Translations under genes and position numbers: made by a program
Assembly (NCBI GenBank): GCA_964490765.1
Contig: CAZBDV010000007.1
Location: 8,065 to 72,064 of the forward strand
Direction: 5' to 3'
Source: an uncultured Candidatus Cloacimonadota bacterium
Lineage (GTDB): Bacteria; Cloacimonadota; Cloacimonadia; Cloacimonadales; JAJBBL01
Length of the DNA stretch: 64,000 nucleotides
In this document: positions 3,422 through 24,535 of the stretch, piece by piece
Layout of the letters: each line of letters opens with the position of its first letter
How positions within the stretch are numbered: the stretch's first letter is position 1
The notes under the pieces: model-generated
The model's database searches: none
The model's input: only the letters and a program-made list of their open reading frames with translations
Told to the model about the DNA's origin: nothing

Positions 3422-5548
3422 ATGAAGATACGGAGCGATTTAGAAAACAGGATATTTATCACTTTCTTTGTCATCGTTTTTGTCCTGATCCTTCTCATGA
3501 CCCTGGCAGAATGGATGGTGATTACCCATCTGATCAACCAGCATGAAGACAGAGAGATCAACAGCAGAATTGTACGTATTGAAAGTGTTCTCAGCAATTT
3601 CACCTCAGAACGGACCAATCTTGTAGTCAATCTGGCAAATAATCCGGTTCTGGCAAGAGCTATAGCCGATCAGAATAACAGGCAGATTGCTGATGTATTA
3701 TCAGAGGGTTCCCGAAATTTTCAGGGGTTGTTCGCTATCTATGACTTAATAGATAACCAGTTGTTCGATCTCTACGGAGAGAGGATCGTACCACTTGAGA
3801 ATAACCTGCAGGCTATATTTAATCAGGGAATAAATCCTCCCGGTGAGTTCTTTGTTAGTATGGGAGGGAGTAGTTATTTTGTCGCGTTTGATTATCTGGA
3901 AACAGATATTCCGGTTGATACTGCAGCCCTGATCTTCTATCTGGAGGAATTCTCGCTCCGTCATCTCGGTATTTCGTTTGATTTCGATTATTACCAGATC
4001 CCCCGCTTCGAAGATATTGGGTTCTTACCGTTACCTTCAACCTTTCAGGATTCAGAATCAGATATAAAGAGAGCACTGGCCAGATCGACAGAAAACCAGA
4101 TCGAGTCAACGATCAGCAGGCTCTCTATTGATAGTGCCATGGGTCAGTTAATCCGATATGACCTGCAAAAAACTCCTAATCTCATAATTTTAATCCCCTT
4201 CGATAGGGATTTCAATGCTTTCGCTCACAGAGGTTTGCTGATTTTTGTTCTCTTACTCATGGCTATGGCATTGTTAATGATTGCTATCTCTGGTGCCTGG
4301 TTCAGCAGGCAGGTCTTATCACCCATAAAGAATATCAGCAATAAGATGCACGAGATAGAGCAGAATCCCTCCTCTCTCGAGCCGTTACCGAAGAAATATC
4401 ACGGTGTTCTCGGCAAGATGATCAATACCTTCAACTCGATGAACAAATCACTTTCACGCTACAGTCAATCTCTTCTCGACTACAAGACGATCATCAATAA
4501 TCTCGATTCGGGAATTCTCTGGATGGATGAAAATTTTGATATAATCCTCTGTAATCCCAGTATTCTGAAAATCTTCAAATTGGAAGCCTTTCAGGATATT
4601 ATTGGCAAGAACCTCAATGATTTCGTCAATCTTAGCGACCGGTCGTTTGAAAAAGCACGAAACAAAGAGCTCTTCATTCCCCATCTCGAGATTAACCATC
4701 CGCAGGAGAAGAAGATTATCAAGTTCGTTCTCTTTAATCTGAGAGCTGTTGATGATTATTCGGGGCTCCGGTTCGTGGCCAGTATTACCGATATAACAAA
4801 AGAGAGCAAGGAGGCACGAGCAAGAGAGCGTCTCGAACTGGAATTGATCAAGAGTAATAAACTGGCTGATCTGGGCAGGCTTGTTGAGGGTATTGTCCAT
4901 AATCTGAACTCCCCTCTGAACACGATCGTCGGCTATGCTCAACTGATTAAAAAAGATCATCCCGAGAATGGTGATGCGGACAAGATCATCTCTTCGGGCA
5001 GGAATATAGCCAAAATCATCAAACAGTTGATGTTAAAGGTTCGGGAAGACAGCATCTCTATGATGCGCCTGATCGATATAAATGATGTAGTTACTCAGGA
5101 ACTCGATATGTGCAGGCACAATATCTTCTTTGCCCAGCATATCAATCTGATTACCGATCTAAAACCAATCAGGCAGAAAATCAATGCTGCCCATGGAGAG
5201 ATCAGCCTCTGTATCGCCAACCTGCTTAATAATGCGATCCAGGCGATGGAGAAGAGTGAAAAGAAGGAATTGACTGTCAAAACTGACCTTGACAGGCAAA
5301 TGATAACAGTCGAGATTAGCGATACAGGTTTCGGGATACGAGATGAGGATTTACAGAAAATCTTTACCCCGGAATACTCAACCAAAAAGACATCTACCGG
5401 TGAGGGTTTCGGGCTTGGACTGCCAATGACAAAGAGTATCATAGAGAAATATAAGGGTTATGTTACCGTGCAGTCGACGATTGGTGTGGGAACTACCTTC
5501 ACAATCTTCATACCCTGGTATGGCGAAGAGAGAACAGAAAGCGAATAA
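3422..5548 (+). CDS. membrane sensor histidine kinase (2 TM, periplasmic sensor, HAMP, PAS, HisKA, HATPase); NtrB/PilS-like
   Basis: H-box GIVHNLNSPL, N-box NLLNNAIQA, G1 DTGFGI, G2 GFGLGL; directly upstream of a sigma54 activator. Confidence 0.9.
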   Translation: MKIRSDLENRIFITFFVIVFVLILLMTLAEWMVITHLINQHEDREINSRIVRIESVLSNFTSERTNLVVNLANNPVLARAIADQNNRQIADVLSEGSRNFQGLFAIYDLIDNQLFDLYGERIVPLENNLQAIFNQGINPPGEFFVSMGGSSYFVAFDYLETDIPVDTAALIFYLEEFSLRHLGISFDFDYYQIPRFEDIGFLPLPSTFQDSESDIKRALARSTENQIESTISRLSIDSAMGQLIRYDLQKTPNLIILIPFDRDFNAFAHRGLLIFVLLLMAMALLMIAISGAWFSRQVLSPIKNISNKMHEIEQNPSSLEPLPKKYHGVLGKMINTFNSMNKSLSRYSQSLLDYKTIINNLDSGILWMDENFDIILCNPSILKIFKLEAFQDIIGKNLNDFVNLSDRSFEKARNKELFIPHLEINHPQEKKIIKFVLFNLRAVDDYSGLRFVASITDITKESKEARARERLELELIKSNKLADLGRLVEGIVHNLNSPLNTIVGYAQLIKKDHPENGDADKIISSGRNIAKIIKQLMLKVREDSISMMRLIDINDVVTQELDMCRHNIFFAQHINLITDLKPIRQKINAAHGEISLCIANLLNNAIQAMEKSEKKELTVKTDLDRQMITVEISDTGFGIRDEDLQKIFTPEYSTKKTSTGEGFGLGLPMTKSIIEKYKGYVTVQSTIGVGTTFTIFIPWYGEERTESE

Positions 5549-5572
5549 AGAAATTGATAAGGAAAGAGCATA

Positions 5573-6964
5573 ATGGAAGAAAAGGCAAGAATACTGATCG
5601 TAGATGACGAAGAAGAGACCAGGCAACTGTTCAGAAGGTATCTGGAGAGTTCATACGATATCGAAGAAGCCGAATCAGCAGAGTTAGCTCTGCAAATGAT
5701 GGAACATAATGAGTATCATATGGTTATGACCGACCTCGTTATGCCGAGAGTCAATGGCCTGCAGCTCCTGAAACAGATCAAATCGTTATACCCCCACGTC
5801 GCCGTTGTGGTCATCAGTGGTAAAGCCTCGGTCCAGATGGCGGTAGAAGCTATGAAGATGGGTGCTGAAGATTTTATCGAGAAGCCGGTTGAAGATCTCG
5901 ATCTGATTAATATTGTCGTCGACAAAGTGATGCGAGTCCACTGGCAAACAGAAGAGATTACCCGTTTGAAAGAAATGCTATCTGAAGAATTCGAGCGATG
6001 TAAGGTTGCCGGTAACAGCATGGTTATCCAGAAACTGCTCGAGAAAGTGAAGATCATTGCTCCCCTCGATACGACGGTCATGATCTCCGGTGAAACAGGG
6101 GTCGGAAAAGAGGTTTTTGCCGAACTGATCTGGTATAACAGCAAAAGAAGAGAAAAGAAATTCGTCGCGGTTAACTGCGGCAGTTTACCCGATACCCTGC
6201 TCGAGAGTACTCTCTTCGGCCATAAGAAAGGCTCTTTTACTGATGCAGTCCGTGACAAGATCGGCTATTTTCAGGAAGCTAATGGAGGAACTCTCTTTCT
6301 GGATGAAGTTACCGAAACTTCTCCCGCCTTTCAGATTAAACTACTCAGAGTACTGGAAAAGGGACTTGTCAGACAGGTTGGCGGTGACACCGATATCCCG
6401 GTTAATGTAAGAATCATCACAGCTTCGAACCAGGATATCGAAGCTGAAGTCAGAAAGGGTAACTTCAGAGAAGATCTCTATTACAGACTGAATGTTATAC
6501 AACTCACTATCCCACCGCTCAGGGAGAGAACTGAAGATATTCCTTTCCTGGCCAGAGAGTTCATGCGAGAATTCTCGGAAAAGCATAAAAAACCGATCAG
6601 AGATATCTCCGACCCGGCATTGAGCCTCTTAATGAGCTATTCCTGGAAGGGAAATGTCAGAGAACTCAAAAATGCCATGGAGCATGCTGTTATTCTCGCT
6701 ACTCACAACCTGATCCTTCCTAAAGACCTCCCTGCTACAATCTATAACTCCGGTAAGTTCGAAGACTCAGAAATCGATAACAAACTACTTCTCCTGCAAT
6801 TCCATGAAGCTAAAGAACTCTTTGAAAGGGAATATGTCCAGAACCTGTTGAAAAGACACAAAGGAGACGTTACGAAAGCTGCCGAAATATCCGGTATTAA
6901 GAGGCAAAACCTCTACGAGAAGTTCTCCAAATACGCTATTGACCCTGCTAAATACAGAGAATGA
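5573..6964 (+). CDS. sigma54-dependent response regulator (REC-AAA+-Fis HTH), NtrC/PilR-like
   Basis: REC (DD, D-LVMP, KP), Walker A GETGVGKE, GSFTDA loop, LFLDEV, FREDLYYRLNV, WKGNVREL, C-terminal HTH. Confidence 0.95.
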   Translation: MEEKARILIVDDEEETRQLFRRYLESSYDIEEAESAELALQMMEHNEYHMVMTDLVMPRVNGLQLLKQIKSLYPHVAVVVISGKASVQMAVEAMKMGAEDFIEKPVEDLDLINIVVDKVMRVHWQTEEITRLKEMLSEEFERCKVAGNSMVIQKLLEKVKIIAPLDTTVMISGETGVGKEVFAELIWYNSKRREKKFVAVNCGSLPDTLLESTLFGHKKGSFTDAVRDKIGYFQEANGGTLFLDEVTETSPAFQIKLLRVLEKGLVRQVGGDTDIPVNVRIITASNQDIEAEVRKGNFREDLYYRLNVIQLTIPPLRERTEDIPFLAREFMREFSEKHKKPIRDISDPALSLLMSYSWKGNVRELKNAMEHAVILATHNLILPKDLPATIYNSGKFEDSEIDNKLLLLQFHEAKELFEREYVQNLLKRHKGDVTKAAEISGIKRQNLYEKFSKYAIDPAKYRE

Positions 6965-7320: not shown

Positions 7321-7336
7321 TGGAACATATCGTGCA
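7321..7336 (+). promoter_or_regulatory. sigma54 -24/-12 promoter of minor-pilin-like operon
   Basis: TGGAACATATCGTGCA, GG-N10-GC, ~40 bp before start codon. Confidence 0.65.
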
Positions 7337-7375: not shown

Positions 7376-7792
7376 GTGATTATGAACTTGGGGCAAACCT
7401 TGTTGGCTGTATTAGCTCTGACATTGCTGCTGACAATAGCTGTGAATATAAACAAGGCCCGTCTCGGAGCTGTTGCTGCTACGATAGAACAGATGGTAGA
7501 TCAGGAGGCAATCAATTTTGCTCAATCCATTCTTGAGGATTATTCCCGGAAAGCGATCACTGAAGAAGGCTATCTTGATATGAGCAGTACAACAACGACC
7601 CTGACCTTCGATTCAGGTAGAGTTCTCTATGCCGATATCGATGTTTCAGATTATACAGATTACACTCATGAGATTGATGAAATCCAGGAAGGAAAGCAGG
7701 TCATTGTCTCGATCTATGCCGAAGAAGATGAGGGAGAGTATTCCGATCTTCGGGCCCGTAACAGTGCAACTTTCTACACCTGGTGGAAATGA
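7376..7792 (+). CDS. minor pilin-like protein (PilV-like position); ATG at 7382 possible
   Basis: MNLGQ followed by ~20-aa hydrophobic helix then amphipathic helix; first of three co-oriented pilin-like genes in T4P locus. Confidence 0.6.
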   Translation: MIMNLGQTLLAVLALTLLLTIAVNINKARLGAVAATIEQMVDQEAINFAQSILEDYSRKAITEEGYLDMSSTTTTLTFDSGRVLYADIDVSDYTDYTHEIDEIQEGKQVIVSIYAEEDEGEYSDLRARNSATFYTWWK

Positions 7793-7801: not shown

Positions 7802-8302
7802 ATGAATTCAATGTTAGATATTATCCAATCGGTAATCATAGCGGGGCTGATAGCAGTGCTCGTTTTCGGTATTCATATAATGACGATGAGGACCGGCCAG
7901 GAGAACAGGGTAATTCAGCAGATGCAGGGGAAAGCGGATGCTGCCATTGCTCTGTTACAGGAGGAGATCAAAACAGCACGGCAATCTATCAGTATCTCTG
8001 CAGACAAAGATTCACTCTCTTTTGTCAATACCAGCAGCGAAGTTGTTACTATCTGGAGAGAAGAGAGAGCTCTCAAAATTTCCCGCAATGATGGAATCAA
8101 CGAGCCGGTAGAACAGAGTTTTGTTTATGATCTTGAAGAACTCGAATTCAATCTGTCCGGTAGCGATGTTATCAGAGTTGAAGTCAGGATTCAGAACAGG
8201 CCGGAAGATCTCTATGAAGGGAGTAATAGTGATCTGTATGTAACCGGCAAGAAAGATCTGTTTCTGAGGAATATGAGGATTGCTGATCTTCAGTCCCAAT
8301 GA
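7802..8302 (+). CDS. minor pilin-like protein (PilW/PulJ-like position)
   Basis: N-terminal hydrophobic helix, 'ADAAIALLQEEIKTA' helix and C-terminal 'LRN' typical of W/J-type pseudopilins. Confidence 0.6.
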   Translation: MNSMLDIIQSVIIAGLIAVLVFGIHIMTMRTGQENRVIQQMQGKADAAIALLQEEIKTARQSISISADKDSLSFVNTSSEVVTIWREERALKISRNDGINEPVEQSFVYDLEELEFNLSGSDVIRVEVRIQNRPEDLYEGSNSDLYVTGKKDLFLRNMRIADLQSQ

Positions 8303-8328: not shown

Positions 8329-9528
8329 ATGGGCAAATATGCAATTATACTGGTTATCTCACTGATAATCCTGTTATCTTATTTTGTTATCTCTACGAAC
8401 AGGGCTAATACGATTGCCACTGAACGTAATGTCGAGACCTTTGCCTATAACCAGGCTAAGAATGTCTCTAACAGTGCAGCCCAGATCATTGTAAGAGAGA
8501 TCATGGAGGTCAAACCGTCCAGCAGATGGAACTACCTGATGAACACAGAGGCGAGTTCTATCAACCCTCCCCCTTATTATAGTGACTGGCGGGATTGGCC
8601 GGAACTGGAAGGTCGATACAAAATCAAGAGTCTGGCAAAGAGTGTAGAATTTGCTGATGATATCCTCTTAGTCGTTTCCGGTGAAGCACACGACAGAACC
8701 TATGACTCCAGAATCCACCTTGTTAGACGCACCAGTCAGGATCCCTATTTCGATTATGCCGTTTATGCCAGAGAAGAAATCAGTATTAATAAGCTATCTT
8801 ATGTCGATAGCTTTAATTCTGATAATGAACCCTGGAATTATGCAGGAGAACATCGGAATGGCAAGATAGCAGTTCAGGGACCCAAAGTAAGCGATACTGA
8901 TCCAATCTATATACATCAGAATAGCAATGGTGTATATGCTCCTGATGGAGAAACAAATATTGAATACGGACAGGATAAATACCTCCCGGAAATAGAGGAT
9001 CCAGGTGGTGGAACTACTTTCGATACTGGTGCAAATGAAATACATTTAGTAAACGGGACATTCAGAATAACTGAATCTTTAACACTGGCCGACAAACAAA
9101 ATATTATCATCGAAGGTGATGTAACGTTGATTATAGAAGACAACTTTTCAATGGCTGGTCAGAGTACTATTCAGATAACACCTGATTCATCACTAACGAT
9201 TTATATGATGGGAAAAAAACTAGGTATTGCTGGTAATGGAATTCTTAATGAGAATGGTTTGGCTTCCAGTATGATGATCCTCGGCGGTCCGGAATGTAAA
9301 GATATCAAACTCTCTGGTAATGGTGACATTACAGCCTGTGTATATGCTCCGGAAGCTGATATTGAAATAACAGGTAATTCTGCCGGAATTTATGGAGCAG
9401 TAGTGGGTAACAATGTTACTCTATCGGGTAATGAGGTAAGCTCCATGCACTACGACGAAGCACTGATGGGAATAGAAAGCGATTGGGTATTCTATAAGTT
9501 CAAGTACTATGTCCATTCCTGGGAATAA
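8329..9528 (+). CDS. PilX-like minor pilin with C-terminal Gly/Asn-rich beta-solenoid domain (putative tip adhesin)
   Basis: MGK + hydrophobic helix, 'QAKNVSNSAA' PilX-like helix, C-terminal G.G/VYAPEA/GAVVG/HYDEAL pattern; paralog at 17859. Confidence 0.65.
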   Translation: MGKYAIILVISLIILLSYFVISTNRANTIATERNVETFAYNQAKNVSNSAAQIIVREIMEVKPSSRWNYLMNTEASSINPPPYYSDWRDWPELEGRYKIKSLAKSVEFADDILLVVSGEAHDRTYDSRIHLVRRTSQDPYFDYAVYAREEISINKLSYVDSFNSDNEPWNYAGEHRNGKIAVQGPKVSDTDPIYIHQNSNGVYAPDGETNIEYGQDKYLPEIEDPGGGTTFDTGANEIHLVNGTFRITESLTLADKQNIIIEGDVTLIIEDNFSMAGQSTIQITPDSSLTIYMMGKKLGIAGNGILNENGLASSMMILGGPECKDIKLSGNGDITACVYAPEADIEITGNSAGIYGAVVGNNVTLSGNEVSSMHYDEALMGIESDWVFYKFKYYVHSWE

Positions 9529-9742: not shown

Positions 9743-11287
9743 TTACGATGAAGCATACTGCATAAGATCCTTCAGCAGTTTAGCCCTGTTTGCTGCCTCC
9801 ATGGCAATCTCAACCGCAATCTGCCCTGTTTTGATATATCCTAACAGGTCCTGTTCCATGGTCTGCAAACCGATCTTTCTGTTTCTCTGCATGATCGGAT
9901 AGAGCTCTTCGATGTTACCTGAGTATATTATCTGTGAGATCTGCTCGTTTGCTACCAGTATCTCTTTTACTGATACCATTTTTTCATTTGTTGTCGGTAG
10001 TAACTGAACGCAGATAACAGCAGCCAGAGTTCTGGCCAGATGTCTTCTGATCAGATCTCTCGAATCGGCAGGGTAGAGTGCCAGAAGTTTATAGATCACG
10101 TCGGTAACGCTCTTGTTTTTCATGGTAGCAAAGACCAGGCTACCAGTATCTACCAGTTTCAGAGCTCCGTCGAGTAATTCAGGACTCGTAATATCTTCGA
10201 TGACTACCATATTAGGATGATAATCAAGACATCGATCGAGTGCGTCGGTTACGGAGTTAACATCACGATAGACTTTCTGGTATCTGATAACACTGTTCTT
10301 TGACTCGTGGTAATACTCCAGTGAATCATTGATAAGAAAGATACTTCCGGAGTAGTGTGTATTATTGTGATTAACAATAGCGTCAATCAAACTGCTCTTA
10401 CCAGAACCGGGAGGGCCGGCAATGATAACCAACCCCTCGTTTTCATTTTTGAAGGAGAGACGGTTGAGCACCAGATTGCTGAATTTCATCTCTTCCAGGC
10501 TAATCAGGCTTCTTCTGGTCGTCTTGACCCCGATCACGAGTTCGTCCATATCGAAATAGATAGTCAGACGGTATCTGTAGGTAACATCACTGACAGTAAA
10601 CTCGAAATTTGCCTTTATAGACTTCTGGTCAACCAGAGTTTCAAGTTGTGAGTTACTGAGGATACTGAGGATCATGATATTGATTTCGTCCTGTGAGAAA
10701 AAACCGTCAATCGGCATCGGTTTGAAGGCTGAGTAGAACTTGCCCCAGATCTTTCCCTGAGAACCGGCTCCACCGATCTCTATGTAGCTCGGTTTCATCT
10801 CTTCCATGGTAATCAAGAATTCCTGGAATTTACGAAATACCCTTTCCCGAAGTTCGACATTGGTATTCAGTTTCTGCTTCATCCTCAGCAGCTTTTCAGC
10901 AGTTGTCGATTGAAAGAGCTTCCTTCTCTCCAGTAAACCTAACTCTACTATCGAACGGAATTCGGCCATCTTTACCGGCTTGGTCAGAAACCGAAAAGCT
11001 CCATACTCCAGAGCCTGTTTCGTATATTCCATCTTGTCGTAACCGGTGATAATGACGACTACTGCATCCGGGTCAAATGTTTTTAATATTTTCAAAAACT
11101 CGATCCCGTTCATCTCCGGCATGAAAACGTCGGTTATATAGAGATCGAATATCTCACTACTAACCAGATTAAAAGCTTCCTGGCCGTTTTCAGCCTCATG
11201 GATCTCATAATCGTCTTCTTCCAGAAAGCTCTTGAACAGATCTCTGGTTTCTTTCTCATCATCAATAATCAGGATTCTCGGTTTCAT
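9743..11287 (-). CDS. receiver-domain / PilT-PilU-like ATPase fusion with degenerate catalytic motifs
   Basis: N-terminal REC (IIDDE, D-VFMP, KP); Walker A GPPGSGKS; C-terminal MQTMEQDL-like PilT tail; Asp box, Walker B and His box altered. Confidence 0.8.
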   Translation of the reverse strand: MKPRILIIDDEKETRDLFKSFLEEDDYEIHEAENGQEAFNLVSSEIFDLYITDVFMPEMNGIEFLKILKTFDPDAVVVIITGYDKMEYTKQALEYGAFRFLTKPVKMAEFRSIVELGLLERRKLFQSTTAEKLLRMKQKLNTNVELRERVFRKFQEFLITMEEMKPSYIEIGGAGSQGKIWGKFYSAFKPMPIDGFFSQDEINIMILSILSNSQLETLVDQKSIKANFEFTVSDVTYRYRLTIYFDMDELVIGVKTTRRSLISLEEMKFSNLVLNRLSFKNENEGLVIIAGPPGSGKSSLIDAIVNHNNTHYSGSIFLINDSLEYYHESKNSVIRYQKVYRDVNSVTDALDRCLDYHPNMVVIEDITSPELLDGALKLVDTGSLVFATMKNKSVTDVIYKLLALYPADSRDLIRRHLARTLAAVICVQLLPTTNEKMVSVKEILVANEQISQIIYSGNIEELYPIMQRNRKIGLQTMEQDLLGYIKTGQIAVEIAMEAANRAKLLKDLMQYASS

Positions 11288-11396: not shown

Positions 11397-13181
11397 TTAG
11401 GAAATTGTTGTTGTATAGATAACTTCCTCAACTGACGTTAATCCCTGACGAACAAGCTCCATTCCGGCTTCCCGGAGTGATAACATCCCCTGTCCTTTGG
11501 CAATGTCACGGATCAAATCTTCATTGATATCAGTCTTGGCACTCACTATCGCCTGACGGATTTCCTTGGTGAAGAGGATTACCTCGTGAATGGCAGCACG
11601 GCCGCTGTAACCTGTAGTCCGGCATTTTTCACAACCGACAGCTTCGAAAATCTTGCCTGACTTGATCTCTTCTTCTTTGATCCCGTTCCTGATCAGATAC
11701 TCGTGTTTGTCACTGGAAACGACTCTCTTACACTCACTGCAGAGCTTTCTGACCAGACGCTGAGCTACAACGATATTAATCGCATAGGCAAGGAGGAAGG
11801 TCTCGATATCCATCTTATAAAGACGTGAAATAGCACTCGGTGCATCGTTAGTATGCAGGGTCGAGAAGGTCAGGTGGCCGGTATTAGCCAGCTTTATCGC
11901 TACTTCGGCTGTTTCCCTGTCGCGCATCTCACCCACCATGACGATATCGGGGTCGTGGCGGAGTATAGACCTAATCGCCTGGTTGAAGTCAAGCTTGTGC
12001 CCTATCTTGAGCTGTCTCGCTCCGTTAATGACATATTCCACCGGATCCTCTACCGTCAGGATGTTCTTCTCAGGTGTGATCACATGATAGAGAGCTGCGA
12101 GCAGAGTCGTGCTCTTACCACTACCGGTCGGGCCTGTAACGATAACCAATCCCTGTGGCTTTGTAACTGCCTCTTCGAAGTCCTTACGCGCTTTTGGCAG
12201 GAAGCCGAGTTTATCGATATTATCGATAACATTTCTATCGTCGAGGATTCGGATAACGATACTCTCATAGTGGCGGTTATGTTCTTTGGAAACGAGTGGC
12301 AGAATAGAGACCCTGAAACGGATCGTATGTCCCTCTATCTCTCTCTGAATAAAGCCGTCCTGTGCTTCGTCAACCTTGAAACGGTCCACGTTACTGGAAC
12401 GATCCTTTACAACAGAGAGAAAAGCCTGGGGATTGATCCCCTCTCGCCGTTTCCATAGTTGCAGCCTCCCGTCCCGCCTGAATCTGATATCGACACTCGT
12501 ATTGTTAAAGGGTATGACATGAATATCACTTACCTGCGATTTAACACCCTCGATGAGTGCAGCTTCGAAGAGATAGACAAGAGCTCCTTTATTGCTCTCC
12601 TGTTCGATCAGTTCTTCCTTGTCCTCTTCGTAAGCCTGATCAGCATCCTGAATCTCGCTTTCCGACTCATCAAGCATCTCCTGAAGTTTGTCATCCTCTT
12701 CCGTCTGAGCTATATGACGGATGAGCGCATCGATCTTATCGAACGGACAGTAGAAGAGTTCATATCGCTTGTACTTCAGGGTACTGGCCAGGACCTTCGT
12801 AAAACTATCGGTCGGATTGGAAGAGAGTATGATCAGTGATTCGTTCTTCTTCCGCTGAACTTTGTAGGGTATGATCCGTTTTCTGTAAACCTCTTCCTTA
12901 ACCTCCTTGGGAAGGCTTTTCAGCAGGCTGATTACCTCTTCGACATCTTTCGAACAAAGGTCATCTATATTGATCGCTATCTTGGGGATAGCATACATCT
13001 TGGCTATCTCAGTATATACAGCATCACGATCCACGTGATATTCGTCTATTAGTATCTCATCTACTCTCGCTTTATTGCCAAGAACATTAGTCTTGGTGAT
13101 TACAGCATTGTAGATATCCTCACTGATGACATTCTTTAATCTTAACAGCTTAGCCAGTAATTGATCATTATTCATATGCAA
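11397..13181 (-). CDS. pilB: type IV pilus / T2SS assembly ATPase (PilB/GspE); ATG at 13175 likely
   Basis: SDIH, GPTGSGKST, VEDPVEY, LRHDPDIVMVGEMRD, TGHLTFSTLHTND, CxxC..CxxC Zn motif. Confidence 0.93.
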   Translation of the reverse strand: MHMNNDQLLAKLLRLKNVISEDIYNAVITKTNVLGNKARVDEILIDEYHVDRDAVYTEIAKMYAIPKIAINIDDLCSKDVEEVISLLKSLPKEVKEEVYRKRIIPYKVQRKKNESLIILSSNPTDSFTKVLASTLKYKRYELFYCPFDKIDALIRHIAQTEEDDKLQEMLDESESEIQDADQAYEEDKEELIEQESNKGALVYLFEAALIEGVKSQVSDIHVIPFNNTSVDIRFRRDGRLQLWKRREGINPQAFLSVVKDRSSNVDRFKVDEAQDGFIQREIEGHTIRFRVSILPLVSKEHNRHYESIVIRILDDRNVIDNIDKLGFLPKARKDFEEAVTKPQGLVIVTGPTGSGKSTTLLAALYHVITPEKNILTVEDPVEYVINGARQLKIGHKLDFNQAIRSILRHDPDIVMVGEMRDRETAEVAIKLANTGHLTFSTLHTNDAPSAISRLYKMDIETFLLAYAINIVVAQRLVRKLCSECKRVVSSDKHEYLIRNGIKEEEIKSGKIFEAVGCEKCRTTGYSGRAAIHEVILFTKEIRQAIVSAKTDINEDLIRDIAKGQGMLSLREAGMELVRQGLTSVEEVIYTTTIS

Positions 13182-14884: not shown

Positions 14885-14900
14885 TGCAATCTCTGTTCCA
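14885..14900 (-). promoter_or_regulatory. sigma54 -24/-12 promoter of pilC-pilB operon
   Basis: minus strand TGGAACAGAGATTGCA, GG-N10-GC. Confidence 0.75.
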
Positions 14901-15197: not shown

Positions 15198-15214
15198 TTG
15201 GCACGGAGATTGCC
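15198..15214 (+). promoter_or_regulatory. sigma54 promoter of pilin 1
   Basis: TTGGCACGGAGATTGCC matches TGGCACG-N4-TTGC. Confidence 0.9.
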
Positions 15215-15252: not shown

Positions 15253-15729
15253 ATGGGACAACAACAGATTTTATTGATTATTCTCGGAGTTATTCTTGTA
15301 GGGATAGCAATTACTGTCGGTATCACGATGTTTAATAACCAGGCCCGGCAGGGTAATATCGATGCTATAATCTCCGATTTGAACAATCTTGCAGTTATAG
15401 CTTTTCAGTACAGGATAAGGCCAATATCTCTCCGTGGTGGCGGTGGAAGCTTTCTTGGCGGAGAGCCGGGACGATACATCGATTTCGCTGATTTCTTCTA
15501 CGATCTTCCAGAAGGATTGATAGATAATATGAACGGGAAATATACAATTTTCTCCTGCGCCGAAAATTATGTCATCATCCAGGGTGTCTCCAAAACCCAG
15601 AAAGACCCTGATGGAGTTAACGGCCTTCTGACCCGCTGGATCAGAGTCGATGACATCGGCTCAACAGAACTATACCTTACCGAACCCTCAGATTCAGATC
15701 TTAACCTTACAATACCTACTGGTACCTAA
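15253..15729 (+). CDS. MGQQQ-type pilin-like protein 1
   Basis: MGQQQ + 22-aa hydrophobic helix + conserved IISDLNNL..AFQYRIRP..GGGG; GGAG SD; own promoter and terminator. Confidence 0.75.
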   Translation: MGQQQILLIILGVILVGIAITVGITMFNNQARQGNIDAIISDLNNLAVIAFQYRIRPISLRGGGGSFLGGEPGRYIDFADFFYDLPEGLIDNMNGKYTIFSCAENYVIIQGVSKTQKDPDGVNGLLTRWIRVDDIGSTELYLTEPSDSDLNLTIPTGT

Positions 15730-16093: not shown

Positions 16094-16110
16094 TTGGCAC
16101 GATTATTGCT
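16094..16110 (+). promoter_or_regulatory. sigma54 promoter of pilin 2
   Basis: TTGGCACGATTATTGCT, consensus match. Confidence 0.92.
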
Positions 16111-16146: not shown

Positions 16147-16626
16147 ATGGGACAACAACAGATTTTGTTAATAGTTTTAAGTGTAATACTGGTCGGCATA
16201 GCAATTGCTGTCGGTATAACTATGTTCAGGGCTCAGGCCAGAAACAGTAATCTTGATGGTATTATTTCTGACCTGAATAATCTTGGTTCTATCGCTTATC
16301 AGTATAAGATCAGACCCGTCAGCATGGGTGGTGGTGGCGGTGAATATGGAGAAAACGATACTACTAGCGCTATAGGTTTTGGAGCTTACTTTGCACAACT
16401 AGATCTTAGCATGCGAAAAACCGACAATGGTTGGTATTTCTTTGATTCTATAGGTTCTGCTATACCTCCTGGTGGTACAACTGAAGATGAAACTGTTGTT
16501 TTACATGGTTGGAACGATACTTACAAACACGGTAGAGAACTCACTATCTATGCTAACGGACAAATGAGAGTAACTGATTCTTTTGACGAAACTGATGATG
16601 GTTCTTTTACTGAACCTACTGAATAG
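16147..16626 (+). CDS. MGQQQ-type pilin-like protein 2
   Basis: MGQQQILLIVLSVILVGIAIAVG...RPVSMGGGGGEY constant region then variable acidic C-terminus; GGAGGT SD. Confidence 0.78.
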   Translation: MGQQQILLIVLSVILVGIAIAVGITMFRAQARNSNLDGIISDLNNLGSIAYQYKIRPVSMGGGGGEYGENDTTSAIGFGAYFAQLDLSMRKTDNGWYFFDSIGSAIPPGGTTEDETVVLHGWNDTYKHGRELTIYANGQMRVTDSFDETDDGSFTEPTE

Positions 16627-16904: not shown

Positions 16905-16921
16905 TTGGCACGAGGTTTGCA
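16905..16921 (+). promoter_or_regulatory. sigma54 promoter of pilin 3
   Basis: TTGGCACGAGGTTTGCA, consensus match. Confidence 0.92.
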
Positions 16922-16956: not shown

Positions 16957-17400
16957 ATGGGACAACAACAAATCTTGTTAATCGTTTTGAGTGTAATACT
17001 GGTCGGTATCGCAATTGCCGTCGGTATATCAATGTTCAGGGCTCAGGCCAGAAACAGTAACCTGGATGGTATTATTTCTGACCTGAATAATCTTGGTTCT
17101 ATCGCTTATCAGTATAAGATCAGACCCGTCAGCATGGGTGGCGGTGGCGGTGAATATGATAACTTTGACGGAGAAAATGGGTATTTCGCCAATCTTCCCG
17201 ATGAAATGAAAAAGACGGACAATCTAAGTGCAGATGATACGTATCAAGCTCTGGTTACTGGCGAAGGAGCAGCTGCAATTGTATGGATCGGTGGTTACAA
17301 TACAACTTATGAACACGGACGAAGAATACGTGTTGACGCTGATGGTGCAATGCAGGTATTTAGTTGGGACGGTACTGGAAACTTAGACGGAACTGAATAG
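16957..17400 (+). CDS. MGQQQ-type pilin-like protein 3
   Basis: First ~65 aa almost identical to pilin 2; GGAGG SD. Confidence 0.78.
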   Translation: MGQQQILLIVLSVILVGIAIAVGISMFRAQARNSNLDGIISDLNNLGSIAYQYKIRPVSMGGGGGEYDNFDGENGYFANLPDEMKKTDNLSADDTYQALVTGEGAAAIVWIGGYNTTYEHGRRIRVDADGAMQVFSWDGTGNLDGTE

Positions 17401-17431: not shown

Positions 17432-17461
17432 AAACCCACACAGCAATGTGTGGTTTTTTTT
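17432..17461 (+). terminator. intrinsic terminator after pilin 3
   Basis: AAACCCACACA-GCAA-TGTGTGGTTTT + T tract. Confidence 0.85.
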
Positions 17462-17781: not shown

Positions 17782-17798
17782 TTGGCAAGGATATTGCA
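17782..17798 (+). promoter_or_regulatory. sigma54 promoter of second PilX-like gene
   Basis: TTGGCAAGGATATTGCA, GG-N10-GC. Confidence 0.85.
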
Positions 17799-17858: not shown

Positions 17859-19010
17859 ATGGGAAAACTGAGCATAGTCCTGATAACCACGTTACTGATT
17901 GCTTTAACCTATTATGCAGTCAGCACGATCAGCGGACATACTTCATCGACACAGCCTGACATCAATTCTCTCTCTTACCAGCGAGCCCGGAATATATCTA
18001 ACAGTGTAGCGGAGAACATAATCAGGAAGATAATGTCCAGGGCCAACAACTGGGATTTTTTCGACCGTCCGGACGGCCTGATCAACGACCATCCACTGCA
18101 CACTTATCAGGACTGGCCGGAGATGGAGGGGAGCTACAGGCTGACCCGGCTGGAAAAGAGTGCCGATTCTTTCAGTCTCGTTGTTTCGGGTAAGTATTCC
18201 GACTATGAGTATGAGACTGAATATCGGTTAATGAGGCGGCAACCGGATAGTGTCATATTCGATTATGCCCTCTTCGCCCGGGACCGGATCGAGATCAATA
18301 AACTCTCCTATCTGGACAGTTACGATTCGAGCAGAGGTTTCTGGGAATCACCCGGGCAATCTAACAATCTCAATATAGGCACCGGTGGGGGTGAATATAC
18401 AATCAGAAACGAAGGTAAGATCTTCGGTGATATACATTACTGTGTGGAAAAGAACCTCTCCCCTCTCCCCGATCCCGGTGGGGGTAAACTGATCACTGTT
18501 CCAGCCAAAGGTAAGGGAATCTTAGAACTGACCTCCGGACGTTACAGGATCAGGGATACCCTGTCTATTTCAGGGGCACGTGGTCTTATCATAAATGGAA
18601 ATGTCTCTCTATATATAGAAAATGATTTGATTGTAGAAGGTAATAAGGGTATAAGAATCACCGAAAACTCCTCGCTCGTCCTCTTCGTCTCCGGCTTTTT
18701 GAGAGTTGCCGGAGCGGGGTTCGTCAACGATAACCCGGCAGCAAGCAGCCTTATGATCTTCGGCACAGAGCAATGTCGTGAGATAAGCATTACCGGCTCG
18801 ACTGACCGACAACTGGTAGGGGCTGTATATGCCCCGGAAGCGCTCATAACAGTCTCAGGACCAGGGATGGGATTATACGGTGCACTCGTAGGAAGAGAGA
18901 TTCATCTCCAGAGCAATCCCTACAGCAAACTCCATTATGATGAAGCTCTCGCCAGAATGAAGGACCTTAACTACAATCTCTATTATTATGCTGTGGGATG
19001 GGATAAATAA
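17859..19010 (+). CDS. PilX-like minor pilin / beta-solenoid protein, paralog of 8329-9528
   Basis: Shares DWPE.EG.Y, FDYA..AR..I.INKLSY.DS, DPGGG, VYAPEA, HYDEAL with 8329; GGAGG SD. Confidence 0.65.
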   Translation: MGKLSIVLITTLLIALTYYAVSTISGHTSSTQPDINSLSYQRARNISNSVAENIIRKIMSRANNWDFFDRPDGLINDHPLHTYQDWPEMEGSYRLTRLEKSADSFSLVVSGKYSDYEYETEYRLMRRQPDSVIFDYALFARDRIEINKLSYLDSYDSSRGFWESPGQSNNLNIGTGGGEYTIRNEGKIFGDIHYCVEKNLSPLPDPGGGKLITVPAKGKGILELTSGRYRIRDTLSISGARGLIINGNVSLYIENDLIVEGNKGIRITENSSLVLFVSGFLRVAGAGFVNDNPAASSLMIFGTEQCREISITGSTDRQLVGAVYAPEALITVSGPGMGLYGALVGREIHLQSNPYSKLHYDEALARMKDLNYNLYYYAVGWDK

Positions 19011-19341: not shown

Positions 19342-20562
19342 ATGAATTTTTCGTTTTCGAAGAAGTTGAAGGAGATTCCCTTCTATGTTCAGGGAGTGGA
19401 CCGAGTAGCGGAGATCAACCGGATTATTTCAGAGAATCCGGACTATCGTCTTGAAGCGCAGAAGGTGGTAGATACCTTTCTGGGCAAGATGATCGATCTG
19501 GAAGCATCAGATATTGATTTTGGCGGGATGGGTGCTGACCGTATGGTCTGGATGCGCATCTTCAGCCGCAAATTTCCCTATACAGAGTTTTCCCATCTAG
19601 ATCTGGACGATTCAGCAGCCCTGATCTGCTCCATACTCTCGGAGAAGAAAGTAGATTCACTTATCCTTTCCCAGAATGCCGATTTTTCATATCAGTTAAA
19701 GCGTGACAATCTTCTTCATCGTTTTCGTGCCGATGCTTATATGGATCTTGACTATTTGGCCGTGAATTTCCGGCGGATCAATCCCCAGCCATTCTCGATG
19801 GAATCACTTGGCTTCCCGCCCCCCATCGTGAGGAAGCTCGACCTCGATTTCGAGAAGAAAGGTCTGATCCTGATCACCGGTATAACCGGATCCGGTAAGA
19901 GTACCACTCTCGATGCGATAATCAATATGAACAACAATCACAACGAAGCACACTGCACCATCATCGGGAGCCCGATAGAGTATTTCCACAAATCGAATAA
20001 ATGTATAGTCAGGCATCGCGAGGTTGGGCGAGATACTCTCTCTTTCAAACAGGGGACTATCGAGTGCTTGCGTCAGGACCCCGACATAATTGTCATAGGT
20101 GAGATGCGTGATCCTGATACGATCATGACTGCCCTGGAGATCACCGATAGTGGTCATAGGGTATTCTCAACTCTGCATACAGCTTCTGCCTTGGAGAGTA
20201 TTCATCGTATAGTAGCAGAGTGTCCGGTAGAGGAGCAGCAGCGGGTAAGGATGCGTCTGGCAGATGTTCTCAGCGTCGTAATCTCGCAGAAGCTCGTTCC
20301 CTCGATCGACGGGAAGCGAATCATGGCGAAAGAGATCCTTAACGTTACTCCTAACGTAGCGGCAGCGATCATCAATAATAATATCAGCGAGATCTATCAG
20401 ATGATCACCGAGGGAAAAGAATACGGAATGATAACCATGGAGCAGGATCTGCTCCGTTTATATATGAATAAGGTAATAACCAGAAAGAATGCAATCGCGT
20501 ATGCTAACAACAAAAAAAGGATAGTCGATCTTATTCAGTATTACAAGAATAAGATGGCATAA
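19342..20562 (+). CDS. pilT: PilT/PilU-family retraction ATPase
   Basis: GITGSGKST, LRQDPDIIVIGEMRD, GHRVFSTLHT, GMITMEQDL. Confidence 0.88.
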   Translation: MNFSFSKKLKEIPFYVQGVDRVAEINRIISENPDYRLEAQKVVDTFLGKMIDLEASDIDFGGMGADRMVWMRIFSRKFPYTEFSHLDLDDSAALICSILSEKKVDSLILSQNADFSYQLKRDNLLHRFRADAYMDLDYLAVNFRRINPQPFSMESLGFPPPIVRKLDLDFEKKGLILITGITGSGKSTTLDAIINMNNNHNEAHCTIIGSPIEYFHKSNKCIVRHREVGRDTLSFKQGTIECLRQDPDIIVIGEMRDPDTIMTALEITDSGHRVFSTLHTASALESIHRIVAECPVEEQQRVRMRLADVLSVVISQKLVPSIDGKRIMAKEILNVTPNVAAAIINNNISEIYQMITEGKEYGMITMEQDLLRLYMNKVITRKNAIAYANNKKRIVDLIQYYKNKMA

Positions 20563-20572: not shown

Positions 20573-22333
20573 ATGGCAAAAGTAACAAGATCTTTTGGTT
20601 TGATGCAGGACGGTTCTGCGATCAAGATAGCCTACCTGGAAGCCGATAAGGAACTGGTAAGGATAGTTGATCTGCAGACGGTAAAGTTACCGGAGGTGGA
20701 GGTTCCTACGACACCTGACGGTATGTTTGATGAAGCCCTGAGCGATATGGATTTCGATTTCGATTTTGAAGGTGGCAGTGATGAGGGCCCCTCTTCAGGT
20801 GGAGATCAATCCGGATCGGATCAGGATTTTCAGATTCCCAAAGGTCCGGAACCAATAGCAGCCAAATCTGACGAACCCAATCTGGAGGCCATTGCGAGAT
20901 CGATGAATTTCGAAGAAGGGAGAATCTCCCTCAATCTCGATATCTCCAATGTGACCTACAAGGAATTGAAGGTTCCCGAAAAGGCAAGCAAGAAGAAGAT
21001 ATATTCCGAGATCAAGAAATTATTCTTCGATGATGAATCACCAGCGGTGATGACCTTCTCCTATCTTCGGCGTCATGACGACTCAATCGTCGGTATCAGC
21101 CATGAAGGGAAGATGGAGCTTCTGGAGAATCTGATCAATGTCAATCGTTCCATATCCAAGAAACAGTATCATTATTCCTATATCCAGCCGAATGAATTTG
21201 CTCTGATCAATGCCCTCCGTTTTAACTACAATGTGAGGCCAGATGATATTTCTGCCATAGTCTATATCGGGACAGATTCCAGCCGTATAACCCTGGTCAA
21301 GGGTTATGACCTGCTGACAGAATTACCGATCATCAACGAAGGCTACAAGTCGAAAGATACTATCAAAACGATCTTTTCCCGTCTGATGCTGGAGAGCTCA
21401 CACCTCAACCTGACCGTAGTGAATAACTATTTCTTAGCCGGCCAGGGGTTGAACGATTCCATGCTGGAATTCATCGCAGACCGACAACCGGAATCCAGGG
21501 TCGAGTATCTTCTGCCTCAGAAACTGATCGATATGGTCGATTATTCTGATAAGTATGATGAACCGATGCTCGCCGAGTATATTATACCGATTATGCTGGC
21601 TGTCACGGCTGCCCTGCCAAAAAATCCTGTCCTGATCAGATCTAACTTCCTGCCGAGGCAGTTGAAAGAACAACAGAATCTCTTCTCGCTTAATCCGGCA
21701 GGTATTGCCATGCTGGGAGCAATTCTCATCGTTGCTCTGATTGGCCTGAATAATGTTCTCCGTCAGCAGACGGAAAATCGGAGGATTAAGCTGGAAATCG
21801 GGAGAACCGAATCTCAGATCCAGGTTAATCAGGCCAGGCTGGACACTCTGGAGGTTATCAGAGATGAAATTGCTGCTATCGAACAGAGTATATCCCGCTC
21901 TAACCTCCTGATCGGAGAGCGTAACCAGTGGCACTATATAATGGAGCGGATCTCTAATTCATTCCATCGCAACAGGATAAGCTGGCTTACCACCCTGAGG
22001 AATGAGCGAGATGGTTTCCGGGTCATCGGTAATACAACGAACCGGCTTCATATCATTGCTCTCTCGAAGCTCTTCCCCGAATCTGTTATAGAATACATCA
22101 ACGAGAATCCGATAGAAGATAATACTGTCTGGTATTTCGAGATCTTTTTCAGATTCCCTGATCCTCTGGAGACCAAGCGTCTCGATCACCTGCGAGAATC
22201 GAGGATAACGAATATGAGCATGCCAAGCCGACATAATCAGATCGTGGAACCGATAATCATTTCCAGCATTGAGAACACAGATAGATCCTATCTCTCAGAT
22301 ATTGAGGGAAATAACAATCCAGACGGGAGATAG
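20573..22333 (+). CDS. PilM-like cytoplasmic domain fused to TM + PilN-like periplasmic domain
   Basis: PilM-like 'AIVYIG..SSRITLVKG' and 'YFLAGQG'; NFLP (PilN INLLP-like) before TM, coiled coil, 'WLTTL...F.VIG'; position before pilO/secretin. Confidence 0.65.
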   Translation: MAKVTRSFGLMQDGSAIKIAYLEADKELVRIVDLQTVKLPEVEVPTTPDGMFDEALSDMDFDFDFEGGSDEGPSSGGDQSGSDQDFQIPKGPEPIAAKSDEPNLEAIARSMNFEEGRISLNLDISNVTYKELKVPEKASKKKIYSEIKKLFFDDESPAVMTFSYLRRHDDSIVGISHEGKMELLENLINVNRSISKKQYHYSYIQPNEFALINALRFNYNVRPDDISAIVYIGTDSSRITLVKGYDLLTELPIINEGYKSKDTIKTIFSRLMLESSHLNLTVVNNYFLAGQGLNDSMLEFIADRQPESRVEYLLPQKLIDMVDYSDKYDEPMLAEYIIPIMLAVTAALPKNPVLIRSNFLPRQLKEQQNLFSLNPAGIAMLGAILIVALIGLNNVLRQQTENRRIKLEIGRTESQIQVNQARLDTLEVIRDEIAAIEQSISRSNLLIGERNQWHYIMERISNSFHRNRISWLTTLRNERDGFRVIGNTTNRLHIIALSKLFPESVIEYINENPIEDNTVWYFEIFFRFPDPLETKRLDHLRESRITNMSMPSRHNQIVEPIIISSIENTDRSYLSDIEGNNNPDGR

Positions 22334-22337: not shown

Positions 22338-23249
22338 ATGGGAGAATATAAATTAACATTCCTCTATAAACGAGGACTCGATCACAAGACACGGAACGTG
22401 ATAGTATTGTTTGTTATTCTCGTATTGATAGTCGTTATCGCAATACTGATAGGTAACAAGATGAAGGCGAACCGGGAAGAGTTGCTGGCTCATAATGCCG
22501 AACTTCAGCTTGAACTCTCTAACATCATGGCAGAACTGGCAACCGAAGAATCACTGCGAGAACAGCTTGCAGAACTGAAAGAGGAGCAGTTCCTTTCGGA
22601 TAAACTGATGCCCGATTACAATAATACGACCATAACACTCTCATACATATTCGACATTTTTCAGAAATACAGCACCAATTTCCACTTCAATTACCGGCTG
22701 GTTAACACCGGTGAAGTGGAAGGGGACGAAGATGTTCACTTTATCCGTTATAATATGACCGGCCAGGCTTATATCAACCTGCTCTACGTATTTCTGGACC
22801 AGCTGGAACGACAGCCCGCCTTCTACACGATAGAGACGATAGAACTCGGGACGCAACCACCCGAAGAGAGAGGCAAGGTGAGTTTCAATATCGATTTCAA
22901 GGCTTACTATGCGAACGATGGGGCGGTTCCCCATGAAGACGTTGCCCTTAAGAATCTCCGGGAAAGAAGGCTGGTATATAATATCTTCTATCCCAGAATC
23001 CATCAACCTATGGATAGTGAAGAGCTCAGAGAAAAGCTCGATATCTCCGAAATCATGGTTGTGGGCATGACCCAGGAACGTATATTTATTAGAAACCGTC
23101 GAACCGGGAATATCCAGGTTATGTATCCCGGAGACGAGATCAGATATGGTAGTTTAATAGAGATTGATTGGATAAATCAAGAAGTTGTATTCCGTATAAG
23201 TCCTACCGGGCTGGCTGAAGAGATCCGTCTTCAGATAGAGGCTCAATAA
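22338..23249 (+). CDS. PilO-like protein with C-terminal PilP-like beta domain (ORF track start 22269)
   Basis: TM, coiled coil, 'G..YINLLYVFLDQLE' PilO-like segment, C-terminal 'MYPGDEIRYGSLIEID' PilP-like; ATG 4 nt after upstream stop. Confidence 0.6.
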   Translation: MGEYKLTFLYKRGLDHKTRNVIVLFVILVLIVVIAILIGNKMKANREELLAHNAELQLELSNIMAELATEESLREQLAELKEEQFLSDKLMPDYNNTTITLSYIFDIFQKYSTNFHFNYRLVNTGEVEGDEDVHFIRYNMTGQAYINLLYVFLDQLERQPAFYTIETIELGTQPPEERGKVSFNIDFKAYYANDGAVPHEDVALKNLRERRLVYNIFYPRIHQPMDSEELREKLDISEIMVVGMTQERIFIRNRRTGNIQVMYPGDEIRYGSLIEIDWINQEVVFRISPTGLAEEIRLQIEAQ

Positions 23250-23273
23250 CAATTAAACAAGGAGTATCCATTG

Positions 23274-23354
23274 ATGAAAACCAGAAAAAGGAGAACTGAG
23301 AAGAATGACCCTGTTGGGATTCATCAGTGGAATAAACATGGGAGTTCTTTATAA
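23274..23354 (+). CDS. possible 26-aa leader ORF coupled to secretin
   Basis: AAGGAG SD; MKTRKRRTEKNDPVGIHQWNKHGSSL; TAA overlaps secretin ATG (TAATG). Confidence 0.3.
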   Translation: MKTRKRRTEKNDPVGIHQWNKHGSSL

Positions 23355-24535
23355 TGAGAAGTAAATTAATTTATTCAACACTAGTAGCACTCATGCTCTG
23401 TATCGCTACTTGTGGCTTGTATGCCGCACCACAAGGCGAAAAGGATTTGATCAGCCTGTCGGAAAATGTTCGTTTCCCCGATGCAGTCAGGATATTCGAC
23501 ACTCTGTATCGCCAGCACGAAAACAAGGTTCTTCTCGATATGTCAGATTTTGATGCCCCTATAGGGATCAATCTCGACCGTATTCACTGGAAAGCCGCGT
23601 TTTACAGTATACTGAGGAATAATGAACTTTTGGTTCAGGAACGGGAAAACGCCTATGTAATCCGGAAAGAGAGTGACCTGAAAGCTCCCGATGATAAAGA
23701 GGTTGAGTATCTGGATGATATCCTGATCGAAGCTACATTCTTCGAAGCTGATTTTCATACTGTCAGAGAACTCGGAATAGACTGGAGTACCTTTGTCGGT
23801 GGCCGGGTCAGGATCAATGCCGATCTGGTCAGCACGAACCAGCTGGCTGAAGACCTGTTAACGGTCGATCTGGGAAATAGAGGTTTTGATATCGGCTCTA
23901 CTTCGATTGATGTCAATACCCTCTTCAAATCACTGGCTGCAACTGACAATGGACATGTGATCTCCACACCCCAGGTTACAGTTACCTCCGGTGAAACTGG
24001 AAGTGTCCAGGATGGTGTTGACTATACTATCCTGCTTGCCGGTATTACTACTACCGGAGTAGAAGTCGAACAGGCCAGAGAAGTCGAGGTTCAATCAGGA
24101 ACAATCGTCAGGGTTACTCCGACCGTCATCCTCGATGAAGAGGGAGAAAAGGCGATCAAGATGGATATCAGGGTCGAACGCAGCACGGCACAACCCAATC
24201 CGACAGGATATTCCAAAGCTACAGCAGAAGTAAACAGCCATAAGACTCTCTACAGCGGTGAGGAGACTATTATTGGTGGCCTGACAACGACCGGCACGCG
24301 GCATCTTCGTAAGGGGATACCCTTCCTGAAGGATCTACCGTGGTGGGTATTCGGGATCAGGTATTTTACCGGATATAATCGTCAGGAAGTCCAGAACAAA
24401 GAGCTTATTATCCTGCTAAAAGCTACTATCCTGCCCTCGATTCACGAACGAAGGTTCAGGCATCAGGATGTATCAGAAGAGATAGAGATCCAGAGACAGA
24501 GACAACCGGAACTGGCTCCAAAGCTCTTACCGTAA
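23354..24535 (+). CDS. pilQ: outer-membrane secretin (PilQ/GspD family), short form
   Basis: Signal peptide; ILIEATFFE, ELGIDW, STPQVTVTSGETG, GEETIIGGL, GIPFLKDLP, ELIILLKATI. Confidence 0.85.
   Translation: MRSKLIYSTLVALMLCIATCGLYAAPQGEKDLISLSENVRFPDAVRIFDTLYRQHENKVLLDMSDFDAPIGINLDRIHWKAAFYSILRNNELLVQERENAYVIRKESDLKAPDDKEVEYLDDILIEATFFEADFHTVRELGIDWSTFVGGRVRINADLVSTNQLAEDLLTVDLGNRGFDIGSTSIDVNTLFKSLAATDNGHVISTPQVTVTSGETGSVQDGVDYTILLAGITTTGVEVEQAREVEVQSGTIVRVTPTVILDEEGEKAIKMDIRVERSTAQPNPTGYSKATAEVNSHKTLYSGEETIIGGLTTTGTRHLRKGIPFLKDLPWWVFGIRYFTGYNRQEVQNKELIILLKATILPSIHERRFRHQDVSEEIEIQRQRQPELAPKLLP

Follow-up and report, generated by a model that had tools for sequence, protein, structure and literature searches.

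We examined a 64,000-nucleotide stretch of the genome of an uncultured Candidatus Cloacimonadota bacterium (G000:C7:8065-72064, here called the window; host genome of 2.56 Mb, 99.9% complete), in which positions 3422 to 24535 encode a type IV filament system. We class this system with the type IVa-like pili, as a widespread variant not described before, and not with the plain type IVa pili (T4aP), because its locus is devoid of the class III leader and of the N-methyl-Phe/Glu5 start. According to the cited portion of PMC4471445, the parts that all type IV filaments conserve include a class III signal peptide as well as a prepilin peptidase, and mutants of Glu5 are unable to homopolymerise. Judged from its sequence, the locus probably specifies a retractable adhesion pilus whose pilins are made in mature form, with no peptidase cleavage. 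As the original prediction held, none of the seven pilin-like proteins has a G↓FxxxE motif or a basic leader. None of the seven matches the N_methyl profile, the hydrophobic helix begins at residue 3-11 in all of them, and the class III signal peptide (a hydrophilic leader of 6-26 residues with a terminal Gly, and Glu5) is absent from the subunits. Machines of this kind are carried by 119 of 177 Cloacimonadota genomes and by 84 of 201 genomes sampled from another phylum. No description of this leaderless system was found in the literature covered, which did not extend to the supplements of PMC6668835 and the possible "generic" systems there.

Pfam and TIGR profile scans of the open reading frames (ORFs) of the window, together with inspection of start codons and the codons upstream, recovered every predicted component: PilB, PilC, PilT, a PilM-N and a PilO-P fusion, a secretin, seven pilin-like genes, a PilT fused to a receiver domain (REC-PilT), and a kinase/activator pair. 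The PilB/GspE-family traffic ATPase and polytopic T2SSF platform protein that characterize the superfamily are present, as are, in the form of fusions, the T4aP alignment complex PilMNOP and a PilQ-type secretin. The pilC, pilB, and REC-pilT genes form a minus-strand run (14537 to 9743), and the remaining listed genes lie on the plus strand. The features, in window coordinates, are as follows.

3422..5548, + strand: membrane-bound sensor histidine kinase (periplasmic domain, PAS, HisKA, HATPase; family scan), the likely partner of the adjoining sigma54 activator
5573..6964, + strand: NtrC/PilR-type sigma54 activator (REC, AAA+/Sigma54_activat, HTH_8; family scan)
7321..7335, + strand: weak sigma54-like box, 2 mismatches, ahead of the minor-pilin operon
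7382..7792, + strand: minor pilin-like protein A, leaderless, starting M-N-L-G-Q (N-terminal anatomy, position)
7802..8302, + strand: minor pilin-like protein B, leaderless (N-terminal anatomy, position)
8329..9528, + strand: large leaderless pilin-like protein 1, with a C-terminal DUF7305/ice-binding-like adhesive domain
9743..11287, - strand: REC-PilT fusion (PF00072 and PF00437)
11397..13181, - strand: PilB extension ATPase, all motifs intact (PF00437, E 5e-103)
13191..14537, - strand: PilC platform protein (PF00482)
14886..14900, - strand: possible sigma54-like box, 1 mismatch, upstream of pilC
15199..15213, + strand: perfect sigma54 -24/-12 box
15253..15729, + strand: MGQQQ major pilin 1 (terminator 15770-15799 downstream)
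16095..16109, + strand: perfect sigma54 -24/-12 box
16147..16626, + strand: MGQQQ major pilin 2, whose model is that of a type IV pilin (terminator 16649-16674)
16906..16920, + strand: perfect sigma54 -24/-12 box
16957..17400, + strand: MGQQQ major pilin 3 (terminator 17436-17453)
17783..17797, + strand: sigma54-like box, 1 mismatch
17859..19010, + strand: large leaderless pilin-like protein 2, DUF7305, 36% identical to large protein 1
19342..20562, + strand: PilT retraction ATPase whose Asp box is clade-specific, GS for ED (TIGR01420, E 4e-92)
20573..22333, + strand: PilM-PilN fusion of GspL-like architecture (weak profile support, ESM Atlas neighbours)
22338..23249, + strand: PilO-PilP fusion (ESM Atlas neighbours, profile match)
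23354..24535, + strand: short secretin, 393 residues (PF00263; terminator 24656-24692)

Neither PilM-N nor PilO-P has a Pfam match above cut-off. Their ESM Atlas neighbours carry PilM/PilN and PilO/PilP, respectively, and serve as leads, on which the PilM-N and PilP assignments are based; the PilO-P profile also matches the canonical PilO (E 1e-6). With PilM-N as query, no related loci were found. The four minor and large candidates are considered putative pilins from their N-terminal anatomy and position, and large protein 1, at what would be the PilX/GspK position, is predicted to be a tip adhesin. The adhesive domains on the large subunits are DUF7305/pAdhesive_15 here and LamG repeats at the same position in genome G126 (L088, L089), where the large pilin of one machine has 1257 residues and five LamG domains.

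A leader hidden by mis-called starts can be eliminated, as a Shine-Dalgarno sequence stands directly ahead of each pilin-like ATG, in-frame upstream codons yield no leader, and the sigma54 boxes lie only 51-54 nt away; at least four related genes do have an in-frame ATG upstream. Among the matches listed, 117 of 120 major-pilin homologues start M-G-x-Q-Q, and Gly2 is kept in 118. For the minor-A family, 130 full-length sequences of 150 listed were compared: G-F-x-x-x-E occurs in none, K or R falls within the first five residues in six, and Gly at residue 4 (83/130) is hence not invariant. At residue 5, this family has Gln in 96 sequences and Glu in another 12 (Q or E, 108/130), and the minor-B family has Glu or Asp at residue 6 in 18/20. 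Counted from the initiator Met, residue 5 or 6 would be the counterpart of Glu5.

The predicted structure of the MGQQQ protein bears out the expectation that it would adopt a pilin fold. Modelled from an alignment of 115 homologues, the major pilin has a mean pLDDT of 90, with a helix over residues 2-55 and then a beta-meander. An exhaustive structural aligner returned type IV pilins or pseudopilins for all 13 top chains of 48,161 (Z 8.8 to 6.3, modest values but a uniform list). The MGQQQ protein gives no Pfam match above cut-off; the best PDB sequence match of its family profile is Geobacter PilA (E 0.041), with Gly17 aligned to Gly14. By these registers, the canonical position +1 falls somewhere from residue 1 to residue 4 of the MGQQQ protein, so that its length roughly matches that of a pilin after processing. 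As modelled, then, the major subunit has the type IV pilin fold. The model of minor pilin B is of low confidence (pLDDT 45) and too poor for a structure search, the minor-A family profile matched no PDB sequence, and the comparison of the major and minor-A profiles is weak (38%).

Support for pilins that need no peptidase comes from the second phylum, centred on genome G179, for which 201 genomes at least 97% complete were sampled and in which such loci carry the titles Ignavibacteria, Kryptonia, and Bacteroidota. We define a window-type PilC by a best E below 1e-60, and tested 80 of its 84 carriers in this phylum for pilins, for family A24 prepilin peptidases (PF01478 and PF06750), and for N_methyl matches. 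MGQQQ pilins are found in 79 of the 80. A24 is over cut-off in 12 and undetected in 68; canonical N_methyl pilins are found in 17, which include 11 of the 12 A24 carriers, and 62 genomes have neither. In three peptidase-negative genomes, the operon MGQQQ-pilC-pilB-pilT-pilMN-pilOP-secretin lies intact on contigs of 3.2-3.6 Mb. Related genomes are not independent, so these figures are given as plain counts.

The picture in Cloacimonadota is different. The 177 genomes sampled here are at least 85% complete, and their cross-table was tallied by hand: MGQQQ pilins are present in 130, window-type PilC in 119, and A24/pilD in 162, with pilin and PilC together in 113, pilin only in 17, PilC only in 6, and neither in 41. 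The survey of co-occurrence that the original prediction had called for thus joins the MGQQQ proteins to this gene set in both phyla. A24 is missing in 6/119 machine carriers versus 2/46 genomes with only a distant PilC, and we therefore rejected the idea that pilD loss in Cloacimonadota proves independence; with pilD near-universal and its loss no commoner alongside the machine, this phylum gives no support for peptidase independence. On these sequence counts, independence is supported outside Cloacimonadota and unproven within it.

In the genome of the window, the locus has no peptidase gene, as had been noted, but an intact PilD is encoded elsewhere (C1:204666-205439), so that "no peptidase in the genome" had to be rejected. 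There is also a second, complete canonical T4aP locus with N-methyl pilins (C6:35834-48797, L087), composed of pilA, pilT, two minor pilins, pilMNOP, secretin, pilB, and pilC, together with a gene for an 808-residue Big_1 Ig-like protein; three of its pilins are of the G↓FxxxE type. The predicted alternative, that pilD and the real canonical pilins lie elsewhere, is therefore correct as to their existence, but they belong to a separate complete machine, and the description of the system as self-contained is not borne out for this genome. Borrowing of the C6 pilins by our locus was rejected, since C6 owns its PilB, PilC, PilT, PilMNOP, and secretin.

A further candidate substrate for PilD is an orphan prepilin, encoded in this genome at C2:78069-78494 (- strand), with a basic leader, Glu5, Pro22, and a non-Gly residue at -1. 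Such prepilins (L179-L181, L183-L196) have Gln, Lys, or similar at -1, where Gly is expected. They occur in 15/15 genomes tested from three families, including some with the leaderless machine only, and in 0/17 tested genomes of the G179-centred phylum. From its sequence, the orphan is a candidate PilD substrate or hybrid subunit, and may explain why pilD is retained where only the leaderless machine remains. The pilD genes of families f16 and f17 (L117-L126) keep both catalytic Asp and four Cys; the N-terminal G-S-F-x-N-V of the G000 PilD, a stretch that we take to have a methylase role, is altered in them where the canonical machine is missing. Genome G126 (99% complete) has two leaderless machines and no A24 match.

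Several observations weigh against pilins made in mature form, or against our reading of their N-termini and fold. Gly2 conservation would also fit an M-G leader of two residues. Between sequence and structure, the registers are shifted by 1-3 residues, and the equation of Gln5 with Glu5 is accordingly not fixed; Z values under 8 may reflect a common arrangement, and Foldseek against the PDB gave no match for the major pilin at E<=0.001, with PAK pilin at E 0.59. G126 is without an MGQQQ match. Within Cloacimonadota, pilD is present in 113 of the 119 genomes with window-type PilC. Seven genomes (G161, G165, G166, G168, G169, G173, and G174) retain pilD with both catalytic Asp alongside the leaderless machine, canonical PilC and N_methyl matches not being found, and the leaderless pair supplies the sole type IV ATPases in the five of these that were tested. 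Finally, the A24 search can miss, as 6 of the 17 canonical-pilin genomes of the other phylum show no A24 over cut-off; such misses of search or assembly are real, yet not enough to explain 68/80.

The Cloacimonadota pilins might instead be ordinary PilD substrates, with an M-G leader cut before the Gln and pilD borrowed as in the MSH system. We regard this as unlikely, though it is the strongest of the alternatives. The intact pilD of this genome, its retention in machine carriers and in the seven genomes just named, and the near-invariant Gly2 all fit, as do the promiscuity of the peptidases and the possibility of shortening leaders (cited part of PMC4471445) and the MSH loci without a peptidase of their own (cited part of PMC6668835). 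The M-G-Q-Q-Q start, however, is retained in the 62 of 80 genomes with neither A24 nor a canonical pilin, the Gly is not conserved in the minor-A family, the orphan prepilin offers pilD another candidate substrate, and the leaders described in the cited part of PMC4471445 span 6-26 residues. A protease outside family A24 might also trim the pilins: the first five residues are conserved strictly enough to suggest that some factor recognises them, and our peptidase searches covered only the two A24 profiles. No peptidase gene is seen in the listed complete operons, however, and packing in the filament core explains the N-terminal conservation equally well; we consider this improbable.

The machine could also be a piston for secretion, with a pseudopilus like the one in the type II secretion system (T2SS) and not a surface pilus. 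The PilM-N fusion resembles GspL architecture, PilC scores slightly higher with GspF models than with PilC models, and the secretin is short (393 residues). Set against these are a dedicated PilT-family ATPase in 37/42 and 11/15 loci with PilC, major pilins that are several and variable (as many as 15 matches in one genome), sigma54 promoters for single pilin genes, adhesin domains on the large pilins, and a PilB outside the GspE clade; we judge a secretion role unlikely, a little more so than cleavage by PilD. It is very improbable that the locus represents a copy of the canonical pilus in decay or without function: altered catalytic motifs in PilT and REC-PilT could be read in that way, but the reading frames are intact, the PilT changes are fixed across several phyla, and the leaderless system is the sole type IV machine in many genomes.

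The ATPases set the leaderless system apart from the references. In an IQ-TREE analysis of 46 rows subsampled from 139, of which 19 were reference PilB/GspE rows with checked labels (the C6 PilB, Acinetobacter PilB, and the GspE clade included, with no verified MshE), this system's 15 PilBs group in a single clade with support 100/99, apart from all 19 references. The phylogenetic check thus places PilB in its own clade outside GspE, but the position of that clade outside all of the references has support of only 58/92, with few references. The catalytic motifs of PilB are canonical and of the PilB type, not TadA/FlaI. The PilTs and REC-PilTs likewise form one clade (100/100), so that REC-PilT arose by duplication of the PilT belonging to this system. 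Together with a pilin fold that has no Pfam match, the co-occurrence of machine and pilins, and the 62/80 genomes above, these clades uphold the prediction of a distinct subtype overlooked by pilin models. A second, more distant window-type PilC (35-38% identity) is encoded in G286 (C1:1242172-1245169) and in G203, G194, G238, G378, G338, G330, G246, and G366; G286 also encodes a PilB that is basal within this system's PilB clade, which points to a sister subtype.

PilT scores 309 bits against TIGR01420, just under the cut-off of 319. The Glu-Asp of its Asp box is replaced in 47/47 homologues from several phyla (AS in 21, GS in 12, others in 14), while Walker A, the second Asp-box Glu, the Walker B Glu, and the His box are kept. 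One Asp-box Glu (E357) is described as invariant and magnesium-binding in the cited part of PMC5424180, and by its offset from Walker A the kept Glu would be its counterpart; PilT is therefore probably active but altered, and we did not adopt the view that it is dead. Of 35 REC-PilT matches in a set of 5.8 billion sequences, 29 are full or nearly full relatives, and orthologues (E below 1e-100) of REC-PilT occur in 11/177 Cloacimonadota genomes. Its His-box His is K or R in 29/29, the Walker A Lys is kept in 29/29, the catalytic Walker B Glu is retained in only 5/29, and the receiver Asp is present in 28/28 sequences that have the domain. With the motif roles described in the cited part of PMC5424180, this fixed loss of hydrolysis residues beside an intact receiver suggests a pseudo-ATPase regulator gated by phosphorylation. 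The predicted fusion is real, but with the His box lost and Walker B remodelled, a second working motor is disfavoured.

A hybrid kinase (HisKA_7TM, three PAS, REC) at 24803-27847 (- strand) is convergent with the secretin gene and is a possible phosphodonor for REC-PilT; a similar kinase adjoins the locus in G098. In other Cloacimonadota families, a REC plus cNMP-like protein of ~285 residues is encoded directly before pilT (L089-L092, L096-L099), often preceded by a 6TM_PilS plus HisKA protein without a kinase ATPase domain.

The pilin promoters are of a familiar kind. Each MGQQQ gene has its own terminator and its own perfect TGGCAC-N5-TTGC box, at the distance from the start given above, and the window contains 8 sites with <=1 mismatch versus 1.86 expected (0/100 shuffles reached 8). 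RpoN is encoded in the genome, which holds 8 perfect boxes and 7 sigma54 activators; three of the other five perfect boxes lie within 3 kb of another activator, which leaves the adjoining activator, an NtrC-type protein as in PilS/PilR systems, as the likeliest driver of the three pilin promoters. A close orthologue of this activator is found in 7/15 related Cloacimonadota loci with window-type PilC. Boxes with <=1 mismatch precede 16/31 Cloacimonadota pilin genes and 11/103 others, and 0 in reverse-complement controls. The family scan gave no 6TM_PilS match for the window kinase; a 6TM_PilS-HisKA gene occurs in a related locus. Since sigma54 control of pilA by PilS/PilR is already known (cited part of PMC6058289), this aspect is ordinary: the regulon that had been predicted stands as to its perfect boxes and activator, but its arrangement is the known PilSR type and mostly a Cloacimonadota feature. 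Of the original interpretation, the distinct subtype is upheld, and self-containment is not borne out here.

Compared with the T4aP of P. aeruginosa, M. xanthus, Geobacter, and Thermus, the system shares the PilB/PilC/PilT/secretin core, the pilin fold, a minor pilin set, and a sigma54-type pilin promoter with a two-component activator. It differs in having no class III leader or Glu5, no detected need for a peptidase in most carriers outside Cloacimonadota, fused PilM-N and PilO-P, a PilT in which the first Asp-box acids are missing, a PAS-type sensor kinase in place of 6TM PilS, and separate ATPase clades. It resembles the T2SS (GspE, GspF, GspL, GspD) in its GspL-like PilM-N fusion and GspF-like platform, but PilT is present, PilB is outside the GspE clade, and the pilins are leaderless. 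MSH pilins have canonical leaders. The MSH pilus of Vibrio also has a single locus without its own prepilin peptidase, and MSH genomes always hold the peptidase of another system (cited part of PMC6668835); 62/80 carriers of the leaderless machine, by contrast, have no detected peptidase or canonical pilin. PilU, a PilT paralogue that acts with PilT as a PilT-dependent accessory ATPase (cited part of PMC6762196), is a model for REC-PilT, which unlike PilU comes from its own system's PilT clade, is fused to a receiver, and no longer has the His box. The likeness to Tad and EppA substrates is a Gly followed by Gln near the N-terminus, but here there is no basic leader or Glu5, and the ATPase is of the PilB type, not TadA/FlaI. 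TadE/TadF and the archaeal EppA substrates are cleaved at G↓Q and have a basic leader and Glu5.

In the mechanism that we propose, the kinase would phosphorylate the neighbouring activator, which would fire the three sigma54 promoters to give single-gene pilin transcripts. The N-terminal helix would take the pilins into the inner membrane. Housekeeping enzymes would remove no more than the initiator Met, and Glu5 would have its substitute in the conserved Gln of residue 5. PilB, acting via PilC and the fused PilM-N/PilO-P alignment complex, would polymerise the pilins into a filament with the two small minor pilins and a DUF7305 adhesin at its tip, which would exit via the secretin and be retracted by the Asp-box-variant PilT. 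REC-PilT, with its nucleotide-binding but not its hydrolysis residues, would control retraction or extension by its phosphorylation state, probably through joining the PilT ring or competing with it. PilD would be needed in this genome for the canonical pilus of C6, a separate system, and for the C2 orphan prepilin.

More tentatively, and with the odds slightly against it, the system may represent a separate FCB-type filament branch (Cloacimonadota, Ignavibacteria, Kryptonia, Calditrichota, and others) without class III signal peptides and prepilin peptidase, in which Gln chemistry replaces the pair of Glu5 and N-terminus and the PilT active site is rewired in parallel, with a phosphorylation-gated pseudo-ATPase added in this lineage to control the retraction motor directly. 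A natural system without leader and Glu5, if true, would show what cleavage, methylation, and Glu5 are for, and through a receiver-fused PilT pseudo-ATPase, phosphosignalling would reach the motor directly. Leaderless and canonical machines side by side in one genome also raise the question of how two pilin pools are sorted. As models based on pilin motifs miss leaderless subunits, annotations of bacteria from anaerobic digesters and sediments understate their pilus content. New here are the split pilD result (missing from the majority of carriers in one phylum, kept in Cloacimonadota), the fixed Asp-box change in the main PilT, and an orphan prepilin that may account for pilD retention.

Tandem arrays of MG(T/Q)QQ pilins occur in two other genomes, with 15 matches in G172 (L093) and 11 in G074 (L098), many of them with their own sigma54 box; their sequences suggest subunit switching. 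Farther along the window, an ORF of 1069 residues at 30803-34012 (- strand) presumably resembles a tricorn-type protease.

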